IMG/VR virus record: IMGVR_UViG_3300047474_000681
Origin: an uncultured virus (IMG/VR IMGVR_UViG_3300047474_000681)
Taxonomy: Duplodnaviria > Heunggongvirae > Uroviricota > Caudoviricetes
Strand: one strand, 5' to 3'
Length of the DNA: 64,000 bases
Below are positions 26,054-42,770 of the stretch, in pieces. Numbering within the stretch: position 1 is the first letter of the stretch; every line of letters begins with the position of its first letter. Under the pieces are notes generated by a model that saw only the letters and a program-made list of their open reading frames with translations, ran no database searches and was not told the origin of the DNA. The position numbers and the translations under genes are program-made.

Positions 26054-27070
26054 TTGTTTAAAAAGGCAGCGGTTTTTACCGATATCCACTTTGGATTAAA
26101 AGGAAACAGTCGTATTCACAACGACGACTGTGAAGACTTTATCGACTGGTACATTGATCAAGCAAAAACTGCTGGTTGTGAAACTGGTATTTTCTGCGGA
26201 GATTGGCATCATAATAGAAATAGTCTCAATCTTACAACTATGGATGCTACTATACGTAGTTTAGAGAAACTTGGTAAAGCATTTGACAAGTTTTACATGT
26301 TTGTAGGCAATCATGATCTATATTACAAGGACAAACGCGATGTAAGTTCAACTATATTTGGTAAACACATCGACGGTATTACTTTTGTAGATGAAATTTA
26401 CGAAGAAGAAGACGTTGCGCTCGTACCTTGGTTAGTAGGAGACGAATGGAAGAAGATGAGCAACATCAAAGCAAAGTATTTGTTTGGTCATTTTGAACTT
26501 CCTAGCTTTTATATGAACGCATTAGTTAGAATGCCAGACCACGGTGACCTAAAGCCTGAGCATTTTAAGCATCAAGAGTACGTCTTTAGTGGACATTTTC
26601 ATAAAAGACAGAAGCAAGGTGCTATACACTACATTGGCAACGCATTTCCGCATAATTATGCTGATGTAGGTGATGACGATCGTGGTATGATGATACTAGA
26701 CCGTGAAAACAATGCAGAACCAGAATATATCAACTGGCCAGATTGTCCTAAGTACCGTACTGTTACCTTATCAAAGCTATTAGACAACACAGATGAACTT
26801 ATAAAACCTAAAATGTATCTACGTGTTACATTAGACTTGCCTATTAGTTATGAAGAAGCTAATTTTATTAAAGAAACATTCATTACACAGTATAATGTGA
26901 GAGAATTAACGCTAATACCGCAGAAGCAGATAGAAGAAATTACAACAGACTTAGATATTTCTACTTTTGAAAGCGTAGATGAAATAGTATCTAAAGAAAT
27001 TGCTGCACTTGACACAGAAAACTTCAACAAAAAAATGTTGTTAGACATCTATAATGGAATAGAACACTAA
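26054..27070 (+). CDS. Recombination nuclease, gp47/Mre11/SbcD-like
   Basis: Metallophosphoesterase motifs DIHFG, GDWHH, GNHD and SGHFH; TTG start after a GGAG SD. Confidence 0.93.
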   Translation: MFKKAAVFTDIHFGLKGNSRIHNDDCEDFIDWYIDQAKTAGCETGIFCGDWHHNRNSLNLTTMDATIRSLEKLGKAFDKFYMFVGNHDLYYKDKRDVSSTIFGKHIDGITFVDEIYEEEDVALVPWLVGDEWKKMSNIKAKYLFGHFELPSFYMNALVRMPDHGDLKPEHFKHQEYVFSGHFHKRQKQGAIHYIGNAFPHNYADVGDDDRGMMILDRENNAEPEYINWPDCPKYRTVTLSKLLDNTDELIKPKMYLRVTLDLPISYEEANFIKETFITQYNVRELTLIPQKQIEEITTDLDISTFESVDEIVSKEIAALDTENFNKKMLLDIYNGIEH

Positions 27071-27072
27071 AC

Positions 27073-28842
27073 ATGATACGAATTAAAGACCTAACCGTAA
27101 AAAACTTTATGAGTGTGGGTAACCAGACTCAAGCTGTTGACTTTGACAAGGAACAACTAACTCTTGTGCTAGGTGAAAACTTAGATCAAGGCGGTGACGA
27201 CAGTGGATCACGTAATGGTACTGGTAAAACTACTATTATTAACGCACTAAGTTATGCATTGTACGGAAAAGCCCTTACAAATATCAGAGCTAACAACTTA
27301 ATTAATAAGACTAATTCAAAAGGCATGTTAGTTACACTGCAATTTGAGAAAAATAATAACGAGTACCGCATTGAACGTGGGCGCGGTCCTAATTTCTTTA
27401 AATTTTACGTTAACAATCAAGAATCATTAATAGACGAGTCGCAAGGCGATAGTAGACAGACACAAGACGATGTAAACACACTGTTGGGTATGAGTCATGA
27501 CATGTTTAAGCACATTGTTGCACTAAACACTTATACAGAACCGTTTTTGAGTATGCGTACTAATGATCAACGTGCTATTATTGAGCAATTGTTGGGGATT
27601 ACTATACTTTCAGAGAAGGCAGATACTCTTAAAGACCAAGTTAGACAAACTAAGGAAGCAATTACTTCAGAAACACTGAAGATTGAAGCAATACAAACTG
27701 CAAATAGTAAAATTGAAACTACTATTGGTAGTTTGCAAAGTAATCAAAAGGCATGGTTGTCTAAACGTACTTCTGACACTATGCGATTACAAGAAGCAAT
27801 TAACGAATTAGAACATTTAGACATTGATTCTGAACTAGAAGCTCATGAAAAATTACAAAATTGGAATGAACATAATAATGCTATTTTGGCTCTTAGAAAA
27901 GAACTAAGCACGTTGGAACCTGCACTAGTACGTGCCGACAAGTCTGTAGAAAAAGTTAATAAAGACATCTTAGAAATAGAAGATGCAACATGTTATACAT
28001 GCGGACAAGAGCTTCATGCAGATAAAAAAGAAGAAATTAGTTTACGTAAAAGTAAAGAACTAGAAGATGCACTAGCATATCAAACAGAAATTACTGGAAA
28101 AGTAAAAGACGTTACAGTGGCACTTCAAGAGATTGGTGACATTAACGGAAAACCTACAACATACTATGAAACTGCTAAAGAAGCATACGAACATAGACAA
28201 AATGTAGACAGCTTAAAGCAAGCATGGGAGTCAAAAAAGGACGAAGAAGATCCTTATCAAAAGCAAATTGACGAACTTAATAATAGTGCTATACAAGAAA
28301 TTAATTGGAATATTGTAAATGAGCTAACAGACTTTAAAGAACATCAAGAATTTTTATTAAAACTACTTACAAACAAAGACAGTTTCATTCGTAAGAAGAT
28401 TATTGATCAAAACTTAGCATACCTAAACAATAGACTTACATATTATCTTGACAAACTAGGTTTGCCTCATCAAGTACTTTTTCAAAACGATTTGAACGTT
28501 GAGATTACTCAACTAGGACAAGACTTAGACTTTGATAACTTGAGTAGAGGCGAGCGCAATAGATTAATCCTAGGATTAAGTTTTGCATTCCGTGATGTAT
28601 GGGAAAGTTTGTATCAGGGTGTGAACTTATTGTTTATTGACGAACTTATTGACAGTGGTATGGACACTGCTGGAGTTGAAAACTCGTTAGGAGTTCTTAA
28701 AAAGATGGCACGTGAGCGTGAAAAGAACATTTATCTTATCTCGCACAAGGATGAACTTATTGGTCGTGTTAATCACGTACTAAGAGTTGTAAAAGAAAAC
28801 GGATTTACAAGTTATGCAAATGATTTAGATGTCGTGGAATAA
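27073..28842 (+). CDS. Recombination ATPase, gp46/Rad50/SbcC-like
   Basis: Walker A RNGTGKTT, coiled coil with CYTC zinc hook, LSRGE signature, Walker B LFIDE, and ISH. Confidence 0.95.
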   Translation: MIRIKDLTVKNFMSVGNQTQAVDFDKEQLTLVLGENLDQGGDDSGSRNGTGKTTIINALSYALYGKALTNIRANNLINKTNSKGMLVTLQFEKNNNEYRIERGRGPNFFKFYVNNQESLIDESQGDSRQTQDDVNTLLGMSHDMFKHIVALNTYTEPFLSMRTNDQRAIIEQLLGITILSEKADTLKDQVRQTKEAITSETLKIEAIQTANSKIETTIGSLQSNQKAWLSKRTSDTMRLQEAINELEHLDIDSELEAHEKLQNWNEHNNAILALRKELSTLEPALVRADKSVEKVNKDILEIEDATCYTCGQELHADKKEEISLRKSKELEDALAYQTEITGKVKDVTVALQEIGDINGKPTTYYETAKEAYEHRQNVDSLKQAWESKKDEEDPYQKQIDELNNSAIQEINWNIVNELTDFKEHQEFLLKLLTNKDSFIRKKIIDQNLAYLNNRLTYYLDKLGLPHQVLFQNDLNVEITQLGQDLDFDNLSRGERNRLILGLSFAFRDVWESLYQGVNLLFIDELIDSGMDTAGVENSLGVLKKMAREREKNIYLISHKDELIGRVNHVLRVVKENGFTSYANDLDVVE

Positions 28843-28844
28843 TA

Positions 28845-29057
28845 ATGAATGATGAAGATGACATTCATGATCAATTAGTGCAAGCATATCTTAAATATTT
28901 TGAAGCAAGTGAACGCTTTGAAAGACAAAATAGTGTGCGAACACATCGAGAAGTGCGTAAATGTTTAAGAGACATACGCACTTTAGCAAAAGATCGTTCA
29001 GATGAAGTTCATCATTTGCACATGAGTACAAGGAAAACCAAAACAGGCGAAGAATAA
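28845..29057 (+). CDS. Small helical protein, possibly Hc1 (histone H1-like) type DNA-binding hairpin
   Basis: 70 aa; FERQNSVRTHREVRKCLRDIRTLAKDRSDEV resembles the Hc1-type helix pattern. Recognised by eye only. Confidence 0.45.
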   Translation: MNDEDDIHDQLVQAYLKYFEASERFERQNSVRTHREVRKCLRDIRTLAKDRSDEVHHLHMSTRKTKTGEE

Positions 29058-29079
29058 CTAAGGCAGCGGTAAGTAATAG

Positions 29080-29529
29080 ATGCAATGGACTTACCAAGGA
29101 AAAACAATTGACCAAATACCAGATGAGTACGAAGGTTTTGTTTATCTTATTACTAATACCATTACAAATCAAAAATACGTAGGCAAAAAACTAGCAAAAT
29201 TTAAAACTACAAAGCCACCACTCAAAGGCAAAAAAAATAAAAGGCGTGGAACAAAAGAAAGCGACTGGCGAGACTATTGGGGTAGCTCAGATAGACTAAA
29301 TGCAGACGTTGCAGAACTTGGTCCAGAGAACTTTACAAGAGAAATTCTATACCTATGCAAAGGCAGGGGCGAGATGTCCTATATCGAGGCACGAGAGCAG
29401 TTTGATAGACGAGTACTTGAAACAGATGATTACTACAATGGAATCATTAATGTTAGAGTAGGCGGCTCAGACAAACTCAAACAGGCATTGCTAGAACACC
29501 ATATCAAGGCAAAACAATCTAACACATAA
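29080..29529 (+). CDS. GIY-YIG family endonuclease (T4 EndoII/Seg-like)
   Basis: GFVYLITN...KYVGKK, YWGSS, FTREIL...E and YYN motifs; single compact domain of 149 aa. Confidence 0.85.
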   Translation: MQWTYQGKTIDQIPDEYEGFVYLITNTITNQKYVGKKLAKFKTTKPPLKGKKNKRRGTKESDWRDYWGSSDRLNADVAELGPENFTREILYLCKGRGEMSYIEAREQFDRRVLETDDYYNGIINVRVGGSDKLKQALLEHHIKAKQSNT

Positions 29530-29920
29530 GGTTGGCGGGCCAGTTTGAAAATACCGCTGTGGAAAAACCTGTAGGGATACAGGACACGTAACATGCTGAG
29601 TCGCGTCTGGTAATAAGGCGTTGGATTGGCATAGATTGATTGTTAGCAGTCGGAAACACAAACACAGTACATAAAAACTCTTTAGCAATAGGAACGAAGC
29701 GAGAGGTAATGTTATATAAACTGCACATTAACCTAGTTAATGTACGTTTTATGTTACATATGTCGACGTAGGTTGGGAAAGGTCAGAGCCCATTGTACTT
29801 TGTGTATAAACTAAACACCTACTTCCAAGTCTCGGCTGGTGCAGACTCACATGAAGCGCATTTTGAGATTAGATGGGACCGTAACAGGTTCCGTCTGACT
29901 GAAACAATCTACATGAAACT
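29530..29920 (+). ncRNA. Candidate large structured non-coding RNA
   Basis: Intergenic, GC-richer than its flanks, with multiple hairpins (GNRA loops, G-U pairs on the + strand) and crossing long-range helices. See findings. Confidence 0.7.
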
Positions 29921-30045
29921 TAAACATTATTACTTCGTAATAATGTGTTTTCTCATAATAACTTATATCATACAAACGAAGTGTTTAGTTTGAGCGATAG
30001 CGATAACTAATATCTACGTAGTAGATATTCACAATAAATAGATAC

Positions 30046-30630
30046 ATGTTACAATCGCTTAGTCTTAAAAACAAAAAACATCTTTGTGATACAGCTCTTT
30101 GGGTAATTATGGATCCTTGGATTAATCAATCAAAACTAGTAGAAGCTGCTGGTCCTAATCGAGATACTGATGTGTTATCTGGATATAACATTGACGACTG
30201 GAATAAGAGATGGGCTGATAAAATATATAATTTTTTGCCGCGGGCCAAGAACTGGCTTGTAGTAACTGACCTCGGTTATTATGACAAAGCTACTAACACA
30301 GATATTCCAACACCGATTGATCCTAGATTTAGTCACTTGCCTGTAGTTGAACATCGATATCTTGGAAAAAATATGATTATTGATTACATGCCCGACGGAT
30401 GTGAATCAATTGTTTATACTGGGTTTCATGAACAAATGTGTATACTACATAGAAAATATATTGGATATCATAGAATTAATTCTGAAAATGATTTAAATTT
30501 AAATAGGTACATTGCACTTGAACTTGTTTGTCATTGGCCCTCACCTCATTTAAAAACAAGATTACAAAGACAGGAACAAAGAAGAGCTAGAGACTATAAA
30601 TATATACGAGTATTGGATGATGTTAAATGA
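30046..30630 (+). CDS. Hypothetical protein, possible isochorismatase/cysteine-hydrolase fold
   Basis: LWVIMDPW near the N-terminus and IVYTGFHEQMCI resemble the catalytic Asp and Cys motifs of that family. Confidence 0.5.
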   Translation: MLQSLSLKNKKHLCDTALWVIMDPWINQSKLVEAAGPNRDTDVLSGYNIDDWNKRWADKIYNFLPRAKNWLVVTDLGYYDKATNTDIPTPIDPRFSHLPVVEHRYLGKNMIIDYMPDGCESIVYTGFHEQMCILHRKYIGYHRINSENDLNLNRYIALELVCHWPSPHLKTRLQRQEQRRARDYKYIRVLDDVK

Positions 30631-35245: not shown

Positions 35246-37000
35246 ATGAGTTGGAAAAAATATTTTACACCTGTACCAACAGGCGATAATCAAAACGGTA
35301 GTTATAGTCCGTTTACAGCAAAAAATAGCGGCAACATGGCAGGCCCAGCGCGATCCAACTATTCAAGCTACTTGCCTGATGTTTATGTAGGTTCACCTAA
35401 CAGAGTTGAACGTTACGGTCAATATAACACAATGGATTTAGACAGTGAAGTTAACGCTGCATTAGATATTCTTGCTGAATTTTGCACACAAAAGAATAAA
35501 CAAAATAACACACCTTTTATTATTGATTTTAAACAAAAAGCAACTAACTCAGAAATTACTATTGTTCAAAAATATTTACAACAATGGAACAAGCTACAGA
35601 ATTTTGAAACAAAGATTTTTAGAATACTACGCAATGTATTCAAAATGGGAGATCAATTCTTTCTACGTGACCCAGAAACTAAGCGTTGGTTTCATGTAGA
35701 TCCTGCAAACGTCTCGCGTATCATTGTAAACGAATCAGAAGGCAAAGTACCTGAACAGTATGTAATTAAAAATATTAATTTTAATTTTAAAGACGGTATT
35801 GCTACAACACCGTACCAAACAAACGGCAACATAACTGGAGGAGGAGGATCTCAGTATCAACCTACTGGCGGCGCACGTGGTATGGTAGGCCAACCCCAGT
35901 CTAGTATGAGTGGCAGCAGATTTACAACTGACGACGGAGAAGTTACAGTTGATGCAGAACATGTTGTACATCTTTCATTGTCAGAAGGTTTAGACAACAA
36001 CTATCCATTTGGTAATTCATTATTAGAAACTATATTCAAAGTTTACAAGCAAAAAGAATTGCTTGAAGATGCGATTATTATCTATCGTGTACAACGAGCA
36101 CCAGAAAGAAGAGTGTTCTACGTTGATGTGGGTAACATGCCATCACACCTTGCTATGCAATTTGTTGAACGTGTTAAAACGGAAATACATCAAAGACGTA
36201 TCCCATCGTCAACAGGCGGAGGCCAAAATGTCATAGACAGTTCATACAATCCCCTGTCAATCAACGAAGATTACTTTTTCCCACAAACTGCTGAAGGTAG
36301 AGGTTCTAAAGTAGAAACACTTCCAGGAGGAACTAACCTAGGAGAAATTGATGACCTTAGATACTTTACAAATAAATTGGTTAGAGGCTTGCGCATTCCT
36401 AGCTCATACTTACCCACAGGTGCCGACGATAGTGCAGCGCAGTATAATGATGGCAGAGTGGGTACAGCATATATTCAAGAACTACGATTTAATACGTATT
36501 GCGAACGTTTACAAAACTTAGTTGTTGAAGAATTTGATCAAGAGTTTAAAAGATATCTTCTTGAAAAAGGAATGAACGTTGATGTTGCAATGTTTGATCT
36601 TAAATTCCAACCACCGCAAAACTTTGCAGCATATAGACAAAGTGAAATTGATAATGCTCGTGTACCAACATATACACAAATGAGTGCTATACCTTATATT
36701 TCAAATCGTTTTGCTATGAAACGCTTCTTAGGCATGAGCGATGAAGAACTTGCAGAAAACGAACGCTTGTGGCGAGAAGAGAACGAAGAAAACTTAGATC
36801 CTATCCCAGGTGACGCAAGTGCAGAAATGCGTGACGCTGGAATAACAAGTGCAGGTATCGGCGACGATATGTCTAACCTTGAAGATGAAGTTGATTCTGA
36901 TGCAGATACTGCCGACGGTGGAAGTGATGCAGGACCTGAAACAGCAACAGGTCAAGAACTAGGATCTGCTACTGCACCCGGAACCGAACAAACGATATAA
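35246..37000 (+). CDS. Portal protein, T4 gp20-like
   Basis: LLEDAIIIYRVQRAPERRVFYVDVGNMP and EDYFFP...GRGSKVETLPGGTNLGEIDDLRYF are gp20 signatures. Confidence 0.96.
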   Translation: MSWKKYFTPVPTGDNQNGSYSPFTAKNSGNMAGPARSNYSSYLPDVYVGSPNRVERYGQYNTMDLDSEVNAALDILAEFCTQKNKQNNTPFIIDFKQKATNSEITIVQKYLQQWNKLQNFETKIFRILRNVFKMGDQFFLRDPETKRWFHVDPANVSRIIVNESEGKVPEQYVIKNINFNFKDGIATTPYQTNGNITGGGGSQYQPTGGARGMVGQPQSSMSGSRFTTDDGEVTVDAEHVVHLSLSEGLDNNYPFGNSLLETIFKVYKQKELLEDAIIIYRVQRAPERRVFYVDVGNMPSHLAMQFVERVKTEIHQRRIPSSTGGGQNVIDSSYNPLSINEDYFFPQTAEGRGSKVETLPGGTNLGEIDDLRYFTNKLVRGLRIPSSYLPTGADDSAAQYNDGRVGTAYIQELRFNTYCERLQNLVVEEFDQEFKRYLLEKGMNVDVAMFDLKFQPPQNFAAYRQSEIDNARVPTYTQMSAIPYISNRFAMKRFLGMSDEELAENERLWREENEENLDPIPGDASAEMRDAGITSAGIGDDMSNLEDEVDSDADTADGGSDAGPETATGQELGSATAPGTEQTI

Positions 37001-42255: not shown

Positions 42256-42365
42256 CTTATTTGATAAATACTATTGTCAGATAGTGTGCCGCAAGGCGGA
42301 CTTATGCTGCACCACAGCGTAGCTCATAGAACGGGCATAGGACTACTTTTTATAGGAGAAAACAA

Positions 42366-42770
42366 ATGGGAAGACCACTAAACAAAAGATATTTTGGAGA
42401 GCCGACAGCTGGCGGCAATGAAATTAAAGTACGTTATCGTGCTACAGGACAAGCAGAAGCAAACGGCTGGATTGTAAAGCAATTAGGATCTAAAAAGTTC
42501 CGTTGCTATGATGGTACTAATACAATGGATTGTACTTTAGTTGACAAATCGCAAGGTACATTAGATGTAGGCGAGATGACTATTACAGTTAAAGACGATG
42601 GCGGAACAGCTCGTCAAGTTACTAAAATTGCAGGACGTAAAGTAACACTTGACACAGGCGCAAGTATTGCTTGGAACTTCAGTGATGCAACTGATGACAA
42701 TGCAGTTGAAATGGAAGAAGCTGGTACAGATGATTCATTCACTGACGCAGACGATTTTGAAGCTGACTAA
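42366..42770 (+). CDS. Hypothetical virion protein
   Basis: 134 aa (MGRPLNKRYFG...), with its own late promoter ATAAATA 42264-42270, strong SD and terminator. Confidence 0.8.
   Translation: MGRPLNKRYFGEPTAGGNEIKVRYRATGQAEANGWIVKQLGSKKFRCYDGTNTMDCTLVDKSQGTLDVGEMTITVKDDGGTARQVTKIAGRKVTLDTGASIAWNFSDATDDNAVEMEEAGTDDSFTDADDFEAD

Follow-up and report, generated by a model that had tools for sequence, protein, structure and literature searches.

What occupies the ~500 nucleotides (nt) without a credible open reading frame (ORF) that follow a GIY-YIG nuclease gene in the uncultured virus IMGVR_UViG_3300047474_000681? The stretch of DNA analyzed here (64,000 nt, referred to as the window) derives from a T4-like marine myophage, and the next ORF, of 194 amino acids (aa), starts at 30046. 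A preliminary description of the window had proposed that a pseudoknotted RNA of ~390 nt lies in this gap. We find a real structured RNA encoded on the + strand, ~390 nt long in the window and 340-490 nt in relatives. It represents a new family which matches no described RNA family, built from a swappable 5' domain (H1-H4 in the window) on a conserved 3' core of ~260 nt, and its 3' part carries a short word in two direct copies.

The evidence for an RNA comes from folding and from comparison of relatives. Folding of the + strand gave -110.9 kcal/mol with a z-score of -2.68 (1 of 100 shuffles equally good), compared with a z-score of +0.17 for the - strand (51 of 100). For covariation analysis, 93 unique sequences were extracted from 117 loci, and the 54 k-mer-distinct ones together with the window formed an alignment of 55 sequences, A3, on which a curated structure of 69 pairs in 16 helices was tested. 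The observed values were 90.3% of cells paired versus 80.0% in shuffles, 42 pairs changed on both sides versus 29.3, and a covariation score of 0.328 versus 0.151, each reached by none of 500 shuffles. When the 3' partners were slid by 1-3 columns as a control, pairing dropped to 31-40% and covariation to 0.05-0.09. The closing pair of hairpin H1 is G-U in 27 sequences and A-U in 26, which fits an RNA made from the + strand only. The z-scores and these G-U pairs bear out the earlier view that the structure is one of RNA rather than DNA, and the covariation on A3 together with at least one pseudoknot does the same for the ~390-nt pseudoknotted RNA; all ten helix sequences that had been quoted were found where they had been placed. 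Its proposed start at the nuclease stop codon needs adjustment: the RNA does overlap the 3' end of the ORF, but conservation starts at least 12 nt earlier, at ~29516 or before. Conservation ends at ~29920, just ahead of an AT-rich hairpin and T-run (Table 1).

These results also bear on a coding alternative, in which there would be no RNA and the region would be either the decayed remains of a C-terminal nuclease domain or a small ORF that escaped annotation. G+C content is higher from the 3' half of the nuclease gene through the RNA (0.40-0.43 at 29200-29900 versus ~0.30-0.35 in the flanks), and T4 Seg proteins are longer than the 149 aa of this nuclease. However, relatives of the nuclease are also ~140-150 aa long, ORFs of the window in this region reach at most 66 aa, indels among relatives are of many lengths, and the helices vary in a compensatory manner. 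We regard this candidate as ruled out by covariation, ORF length and indel lengths, and its probability as practically nil.

By sequence comparison, homologues of the RNA are present in well over 100 uncultured marine phage contigs. A search via nuclease relatives confirmed at least 598 of at least 600 candidate stretches, 80 of which were compared in detail, and scans for the core motif gave at least 120 matches in viral contigs, plus 5, plus 58 from further scans. To count, a core-pattern match must come with flanking anchors; individual homologue loci in viral contigs carry labels such as L120 and L128. A 20-nt core pattern in L253 and L264 was rejected as a chance match, all other RNA anchors being absent. 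Among 185,579 species genomes the core motif matched four times, each time with all other anchors absent and below the ~17 matches expected by chance, which indicates that the RNA is not cellular. A blastn comparison with 50,697 isolate phage records returned no match to the RNA. The family is thus found here only in uncultured marine phage contigs. Nucleotide homology to relatives of ~75% extends from gp46 via the nuclease gene to window positions 30008-30055, beyond which the genes differ; the nearest record, G001, stops at window position 30212, which has no bearing on the RNA.

As a side observation, 24 of the 80 contigs end 75-230 nt past the nuclease stop codon, five of them at +146. Contigs ending or beginning inside the RNA include L010, L024, L025, L031, L048, L068 and L079, and further contigs breaking there are L087, L090, L101, L111, L122, L137 and L154. 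These breaks probably reflect assembly failing on coexisting variants of the variable domains and not a physical genome end.

The core comprises ~100 nearly invariant bases and a long-range helix which is crossed by a second helix. The long-range helix, described earlier at 29662-71/29794-805, is confirmed in its inner part (29667-71/29794-98), where 98.9% of cells are paired and all five pairs are changed on both sides. Other lineages have CTGC..ACACA with TGTGT..GCAG or ATCTCC with GGAGAT in its place, the latter in L093, L098, L230, L257 and L274, where the entire 5' domain is swapped for a different fold and the core is retained. Enclosed by this helix are the H5 hairpin, variable domain 2 and the invariant knot at 29760-93. 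The GGAACGA of the H5 loop is invariant and present even in L120 and L128. Within the knot, GAC 29765-67 and GTC 29782-84 are 100% paired, with the C-G pair found as CG:45, UG:6 and UA:4, and TGGG can pair with CCCA, both strands being invariant in A3. The GTAGG/CCTAC helix is likewise 100% paired in A3, where one sequence is fully compensated and nine have G-U pairs, and L128 has GCAGG/CCTGT. Since this helix crosses the long-range helix, the pseudoknot that had been proposed for GTAGGT/ACCTAC is confirmed; the strands of the TGGGA/TTCCA helix suggested along with it are invariant in A3. Variable domain 2 is unalignable in A3 (29.6-36.8% of cells paired); it is a short GNRA-capped stem in many relatives and reaches ~130 nt in L012. 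The hairpin reported at 29725-43 lies in this hypervariable inserted domain and is present in the window but not conserved.

The 5' domain opens with a leader in which AAGG is invariant in A3 and ACA..AAGGTT nearly so. This ACA..AAGGTT is also kept behind unrelated ORFs, as in L120 and L128, neither of which has a GIY-YIG gene. A word AAGGCA is found ~20 nt before the leader. The hairpins suggested at 29534-38/29554-58 and 29568-83 are both paired in most A3 sequences and covary (Table 1), with GCAG/CTGC and GCCCG/CGGGC among the compensated variants of the former. H3 shows pair swaps of UA:33 versus CG:22, AU:32 versus GC:21 and UA:32 versus CG:16. The hairpin noted at 29603-21 exists in the window, but it sits in variable domain 1, a hypervariable insertion of ~20 to ~95 nt within H3 that is ~45-75 nt longer in other lineages and contains a T-loop-like element in some; both hypervariable inserted domains are often GNRA-capped. 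Two long-range pairings of the preliminary description did not hold. The helix 29592-602/29844-53 is paired in 65.8% of A3 cells, a low value because the 5' side varies while the 3' side is invariant, and its bases form H3 instead. The helix 29632-38/29905-11 is paired in 86.8% of cells with no change on both sides, and its 5' half belongs to H4. Tested jointly, three disputed helices of that description have a covariation of 0.048 versus 0.049 in shuffles, with 280 of 500 shuffles as good.

The 3' part of the RNA contains two modules, R1 and R2, which resemble an imperfect duplication of ~30 nt, each having TTCC, GTCT, G-R-CTG, a spacer, a fixed 4-nt centre (ACTC in R1, ATCT in R2) and a word. 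The hairpin between the words, also recognized earlier (29871-96), is conserved. An identical word of at least 6 nt is present at both sites in all 112 loci tallied, in 19 variants such as CGTGAA, CATAAT, CATGAT, CATAAA, CAGGAA and CAGAAAG, divergent loci contribute further ones, and one more locus set adds AGATGAA; a few loci (L146, L190, L076) have a single-position mismatch between the two words. The word is replaced completely at both sites in two lineages, by ATCATCAAGT in L120 and by GGTAAT-N-TCA in the L237 group. Word length varies from 7 to 14 nt and word-to-word spacing is constant at 51-62 nt, and in some lineages the 3-4 nt ahead of the fixed centre are also identical between R1 and R2. 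A short variable stem tends to close a loop that contains word 1, whereas word 2 follows the R2 scaffold and precedes the terminator. This pattern is direct-repeat covariation and not base-pair covariation.

The composition of the words is a separate observation. TGA or TAA is kept at word positions 4-6 in 17 of the 19 variants, words lacking it there being ACAGGAA, ACAGAAAG and the L120 word, and many words read like overlapping stop-start junctions (ATGA, GTGA, TAATG, TGATG).

The AT-rich hairpin that follows is likely an intrinsic terminator and the 3' end of the RNA. A hairpin followed by a T-run within 75 nt after word 2 was found in 77 of 114 unique loci by criteria set in this analysis, and the arms of the AT-rich hairpin covary in relatives. 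A consensus terminator scan missed it because that scan requires three G-C pairs.

Table 1. Genes and RNA features at the locus (window positions), followed by examples of word pairs from homologue loci
Feature	Position	Strand	Remarks
gp47-like recombination nuclease gene	26054-27070		
gp46-like recombination nuclease gene	27073-28842		ends upstream of the RNA
70-aa ORF	28845-29057		between gp46-like gene and GIY-YIG gene
GIY-YIG nuclease gene, 149 aa	29080-29529	+	Pfam PF19835 SegE_GIY-YIG, E 8.2e-35, residues 3-123; PHROG 447
Conserved 5' leader (..AACACATAAGGTT)	29516-29533	+	overlaps stop codon of upstream ORF
H1 hairpin GGCGG/CCGCT	29534-38/29554-58	+	98.2% paired; 4 of 5 pairs changed on both sides
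H2 GTG/CAC	29559-61/29585-87	+	98.2% paired; UA:43, AU:10; encloses GNRA-capped hairpin 29568-83
GNRA-capped hairpin	29568-72/29579-83	+	84.4% paired; 5 of 5 tested pairs changed on both sides
H3	29594-99 and 29601-02 with 29623-24 and 29626-31	+	95.2% paired
Variable domain 1, inside H3	29603-21 in window	+	hypervariable
H4 hairpin GATTG/CAGTC	29634-38/29647-51	+	97.5% paired; 4 of 5 pairs changed on both sides
Long-range helix, 5' strand (ACACAGTACA), then A-rich joiner ATAAAAA	29662-29677	+	joiner nearly invariant
H5 stem and conserved loop (AATAGGAACGAA)	29678-29705	+	outer stem 93.4%, inner stem 97.7% paired
Variable domain 2	29706-29759	+	hypervariable; long hairpin in window
Invariant pseudoknotted core (ATGTCGAC GTAGG T TGGG AAAG GTC AGAG CCCA TT)	29760-29793	+	
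Long-range helix, 3' strand (TGTACTTTGTGT)	29794-29805	+	
Crossing helix, 3' strand CCTAC	29818-29822	+	pairs with GTAGG 29768-72
Module R1: TTCC..GTCTC..GGCTG..ACTC and word 1 (ACATGAAG, 29849-56)	29823-29856	+	
Helix GTCTC/GAGAT, weakly supported	29829-33/29865-69	+	70.6% paired; compensated GTCTA/TAGAC, GTCTT/AAGAC
Conserved hairpin between words	29871-80/29887-96	+	96.4% paired
Module R2: TTCC GTCT GACTG..ATCT and word 2 (ACATGAAA, 29911-18)	29889-29918	+	
AT-rich hairpin, 9-10 pairs, then T-run (TTTT)	29924-29951	+	read from sequence
R1/R2 word pair			CACGTGAA and TACGTGAA
R1/R2 word pair			CACATAAT and TACATAAT
R1/R2 word pair			CACATGAT and TACATGAT
R1/R2 word pair			CGCATAAAG and TGCATAAAG
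R1/R2 word pair			CGTATGAA and TGTATGAA
R1/R2 word pair			CACAGGAA and TACAGGAA
R1/R2 word pair			CACAGAAAG and TACAGAAAG

What could such an RNA do? Our tentative reading, held as a whole with a little less than even confidence, is a stand-alone structured non-coding RNA (ncRNA) gene whose product would be a scaffold showing a programmable word twice for bivalent recognition in trans; our confidence in the trans-recognition mechanism by itself is much less. In the window, the RNA would probably be made as the tail of a gp47-gp46-small ORF-GIY-YIG transcript ending at the hairpin and T-run of 29924-51. The core would then act as a rigid scaffold, or possibly an active site, displaying one programmable word of 7-14 nt twice, in the R1 loop (29849-56) and in the single-stranded R2 tail (29911-18). 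Both copies would probably recognize the same nucleic acid in trans by base pairing, and the RNA may act bivalently, as an antisense, sponge or guide-like RNA that acquires a new specificity when both words change together. It is more doubtful that the family is a new class of programmable phage RNAs in which a ribozyme-sized pseudoknotted scaffold and the twin word capture two copies of a complementary nucleic acid or serve cut-and-join at two identical sites.

Several points weigh against bivalent recognition in trans. Neither the window nor eight related genomes yielded a conserved target for the words, and word-pattern matches in the window are at chance level (7 found versus 8.6 expected). 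The words are short, and the TGA or TAA kept in most variants may reflect some other constraint. Two equivalent processing sites, two sites for one protein, or gene conversion acting on the duplicated modules could likewise account for identical words. The single perfect complement of word 2 in the window (35690-35701, 12 of 12 positions) lies on the + strand inside a conserved 584-aa ORF (35246-37000). The homologous site in eight other genomes matches at 12, 11, 11, 10, 10, 9, 9 and 9 of 12 positions, is perfect in L030 and is uncompensated in L161, the genome with the most different word. As a target this site was rejected: the match decays with divergence, compensation is missing, and we take it to be a coincidence of a conserved codon string. 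A complement of the words was sought in cis by exact 7-mers with G-U pairs, by sliding duplex energies and by duplexes of whole modules, none of which revealed one at a conserved position, and across the tallied loci neither a third copy of the word nor its reverse complement was present at a fixed place.

Another possibility is a self-processing ribozyme, in which the core cleaves, or cleaves and rejoins, at both words and thereby releases or circularizes the 51-62 nt segment with the hairpin 29871-96; the words would be identical because one active site must accept both. The ~100 invariant bases in joining regions, the pseudoknot and the swappable GNRA-capped peripheral domains are what such a ribozyme might look like, and R1 and R2 would offer two equivalent sites at a spacing of 51-62 nt, each with covarying letters on either side of a fixed 4-nt centre (ACTC, ATCT). 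However, no known ribozyme family matches, no word-complementary guide is seen in cis, and neither a joint 29849-29911 nor a pile-up of ends at the words was seen in RNA-library sequences, a comparison made on contigs only. We consider a ribozyme unlikely.

These RNA-library sequences are contigs assembled from RNA libraries, in which parts of the stretch were found in six runs; four runs from four studies were compared. Contigs identical to the window cover 29503-29712, 29655-29777, 29679-29789 and 29683-29764, and a contig of a relative spans 29760-30029. Joints at 29567/29654 and 29708/29760 and loose ends at 29567 correspond to alternative variable domains of relatives and not to splicing. 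Contig cover of the flanks is low or absent. Since these are contigs only, neither this low cover nor the lack of RNA ends at the words carries weight. These contigs establish presence in assemblies of RNA libraries and are not proof of transcription; that they give no transcript ends, strand or abundance, and that RNA libraries can contain DNA, also counts against the trans-recognition reading.

The position of the RNA next to a nuclease gene raises the possibility that it is a partner or guide of this GIY-YIG nuclease, a partnership that the preliminary description had put forward. The protein consists of the GIY-YIG domain (residues 3-123) and 26 further residues, and a catalytic-domain-only enzyme of 149 aa could borrow its specificity from the words, which behave like a programmable specificity element. 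Among 104 unique loci of the main lineage with at least 1200 nt of upstream sequence, the nuclease gene is adjacent to the RNA in 89, farther away in 13 and absent in 2, and in 102 of the 104 it lies upstream on the same strand. Yet nucleotide similarity continues without a break from gp46 across the RNA, a pattern that vertical descent would produce, and vertical descent explains the conserved gene order equally well. In eight of the 13 non-adjacent loci at least one extra ORF, usually of ~90-100 aa, lies between gene and RNA. Nine contigs of two other lineages have the RNA but no GIY-YIG gene in the 1.5-4 kilobases (kb) of upstream sequence examined. Five of these belong to the L120/L128 lineage, where the RNA lies upstream of an ORF weakly similar to terminase small subunits (PHROG 309, E 2e-4 and 1e-3); in L230, L257, L260 and L274, 1.6-2.5 kb upstream were examined; core and twin words are kept in both groups. 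In the opposite direction, relatives of the nuclease are encoded in 762 isolate phage records, none of which matches the RNA by blastn. The closest named nuclease relative, in Methylophilales phage Melnitz (69% identity), is located after nrdB, and the core motif is absent from its locus. RNA homologues unlinked to the nuclease, which the preliminary description had named as the finding that would refute the partnership, thus exist, and we infer that the nuclease gene is a frequent neighbour of the RNA and not a required partner; a guide role for the RNA in this nuclease seems unlikely to us. Appealing as it was, the idea of an RNA-guided GIY-YIG nuclease lacked support and is removed by these findings.

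Further observations concern this neighbourhood. A sequence comparison of the nuclease with solved structures gave no match, and the nuclease does not resemble T4 DenA; gp46 reaches only 51% identity with its best isolate match. Intervening ORFs of ~85-104 aa with no known family are found in L109 (934-1212), L157, L088, L140 and L123; two intervening ORFs have weak sub-threshold matches to PF12843, and no convincing family is shared among ORFs between nuclease gene and RNA. L031 and L033 carry a ~1.7-kb insertion directly after gp46. Just 5' of the nuclease start, a motif AGGCA..(G/A)TAAGTA..ATG (window 29040-29079), to which the AAGGCA before the leader is similar, is kept in most relatives; it has the appearance of a ribosome-binding region or of some lineage-specific signal, and it is not a T4 late promoter. 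The late-type promoter that had been placed at 29069 for nuclease gene and RNA finds no backing: in all 79 relatives compared, the 70 nt preceding the nuclease start are free of any TATAAATA-like word. Co-transcription of the RNA with the nuclease gene is plausible.

The terminator-like hairpin suggests yet another role, control in cis of the terminator that follows (as a riboswitch, tRNA sensor or antiterminator), with the words as competing copies in a conformational switch and the RNA deciding whether transcription of an early or middle operon continues into the variable genes downstream. Word 2 does abut a terminator-like hairpin in 77 of 114 loci, downstream genes do differ among relatives, and several conserved segments have more than one candidate partner. 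CAATCTA, for instance, may pair with TAGATTG or TAGGTTG; the latter (29769-75) is its frequent best partner and competes with the helix that is compensated in L128. On the other hand, known elements that control terminators are much smaller than this RNA. The arms of the terminator change freely and without any accompanying change in the RNA, there is no match to a T-box or riboswitch family, and no partner shared by both words was found. This role seems improbable.

Whether the RNA belongs to a known family was addressed with covariance models. An Rfam 15 search of the whole window at gathering scores returned only a freshwater-2 RNA (RF02980, + strand, 42285-42368, 64.2 bits versus a gathering score of 49.9, E 1.8e-7) and nothing at the RNA; a search of 28800-30200 at E <=10 gave only noise at E >=3.7. 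Searches of ten related or look-alike loci gave nothing relevant, and six divergent homologue loci nothing at the RNA. No Rfam family accounts for the RNA in the window or in the homologues searched, and the earlier suggestion of a compact member of a large-ncRNA class is not borne out: no match to GOLLD, ROOL, HEARO, group I or group II introns or RNase P was found at E <=10, nor one to the OLE and raiA models in the region. One core string may resemble a conserved region of RNase P; RNase P models gave no match in the window region or in the six homologue loci.

In a T4-like phage, a pseudoknotted RNA that has a GIY-YIG gene for a neighbour also brings group I introns to mind: the RNA could be such an intron, or a decayed derivative, travelling with its homing endonuclease gene in the manner of T4 td and I-TevI. 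GNRA-capped peripheral stems are shared with td, and the topology is partly like the group I core, having a long-range helix with two hairpins inside, a crossing helix and an A-rich joiner. Against this, RF00028 gave no match at E <=10 (28800-30200) or at E <=5 (six homologue loci), and in the same mode the 3' cores of T4 td (40.3 bits, E 9.2e-8) and nrdB (35.7 bits, E 2.3e-6) were found as positive controls, so that the RNA is not a typical group I intron. Flanking exons are absent: gp46 and the 70-aa ORF end upstream, and a covarying hairpin followed by unrelated, lineage-varying genes lies downstream. There is no conserved terminal G either, since G 29915 is replaced in the CATAAT, CATAAA and CAGAAA variants, and no spliced joint was seen in the RNA-library contigs. 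The RNA also occurs without the nuclease gene, unlike the td arrangement. An intronic origin therefore appears very improbable.

Other systems offer partial parallels. GOLLD and ROOL are likewise large and intricate phage ncRNAs with many conserved unpaired bases and modular peripheral helices; a cryo-EM paper on these Rfam families is PMC12286853. In contrast to them, our RNA has no covariance-model match, is smaller (~340-490 nt) and has no general tRNA neighbourhood. No tRNA is present in the 64-kb window and tRNAs were found in only one of 20 loci; L230 has three tRNA genes ~2 kb downstream of the RNA. Twin covarying words are not known from GOLLD or ROOL. Neighbours of the RNA in L230, L257, L274 and L237 include a PTH2 peptidyl-tRNA hydrolase (E 7e-6), a PP-loop ATPase (E 2e-23) and a radical SAM protein (E 8e-8); these and the tRNA genes may be ordinary phage accessory content. 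With the omega and reRNAs of IscB and TnpB (HEARO), the RNA shares a 5' end overlapping the 3' end of the upstream ORF and a short programmable 3' segment. It differs in that the neighbouring nuclease is of the GIY-YIG type and dispensable, in the lack of a HEARO match and in a segment of 7-14 nt that is present twice; no transposon ends were seen.

A covariation-based method has yielded candidate structured RNAs of 29-151 nt from IMG/VR (Fremin et al. 2023, PMC10690425). Uncultured viral contigs are their source too, and at that size they could include at most sub-hairpins of our RNA. Four core strings are absent from six of its supplementary files (PMC10690425); three others were unsearchable, and an earlier listing of a fragment is possible. 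In the literature we found no description of this RNA or of a family with the twin-word pattern. We know of no described RNA family in which two direct copies of a word change identically.

Large pseudoknotted RNAs with an invariant core are rare, and those that are well understood are mostly catalytic or belong to the central machinery of the cell. The RNA described here is abundant in marine viral metagenomes, its sequence is present in RNA-library assemblies of four studies, and it combines a swappable 5' domain with a fixed core. Its covariation is the unusual feature: the word is present in two direct copies, and changes in one, up to replacement of the whole word, are matched in the other. 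Should the words serve for recognition, this would be a natural programmable RNA of compact size; should they be sites of processing, the RNA would be a candidate for a new class of ribozymes.

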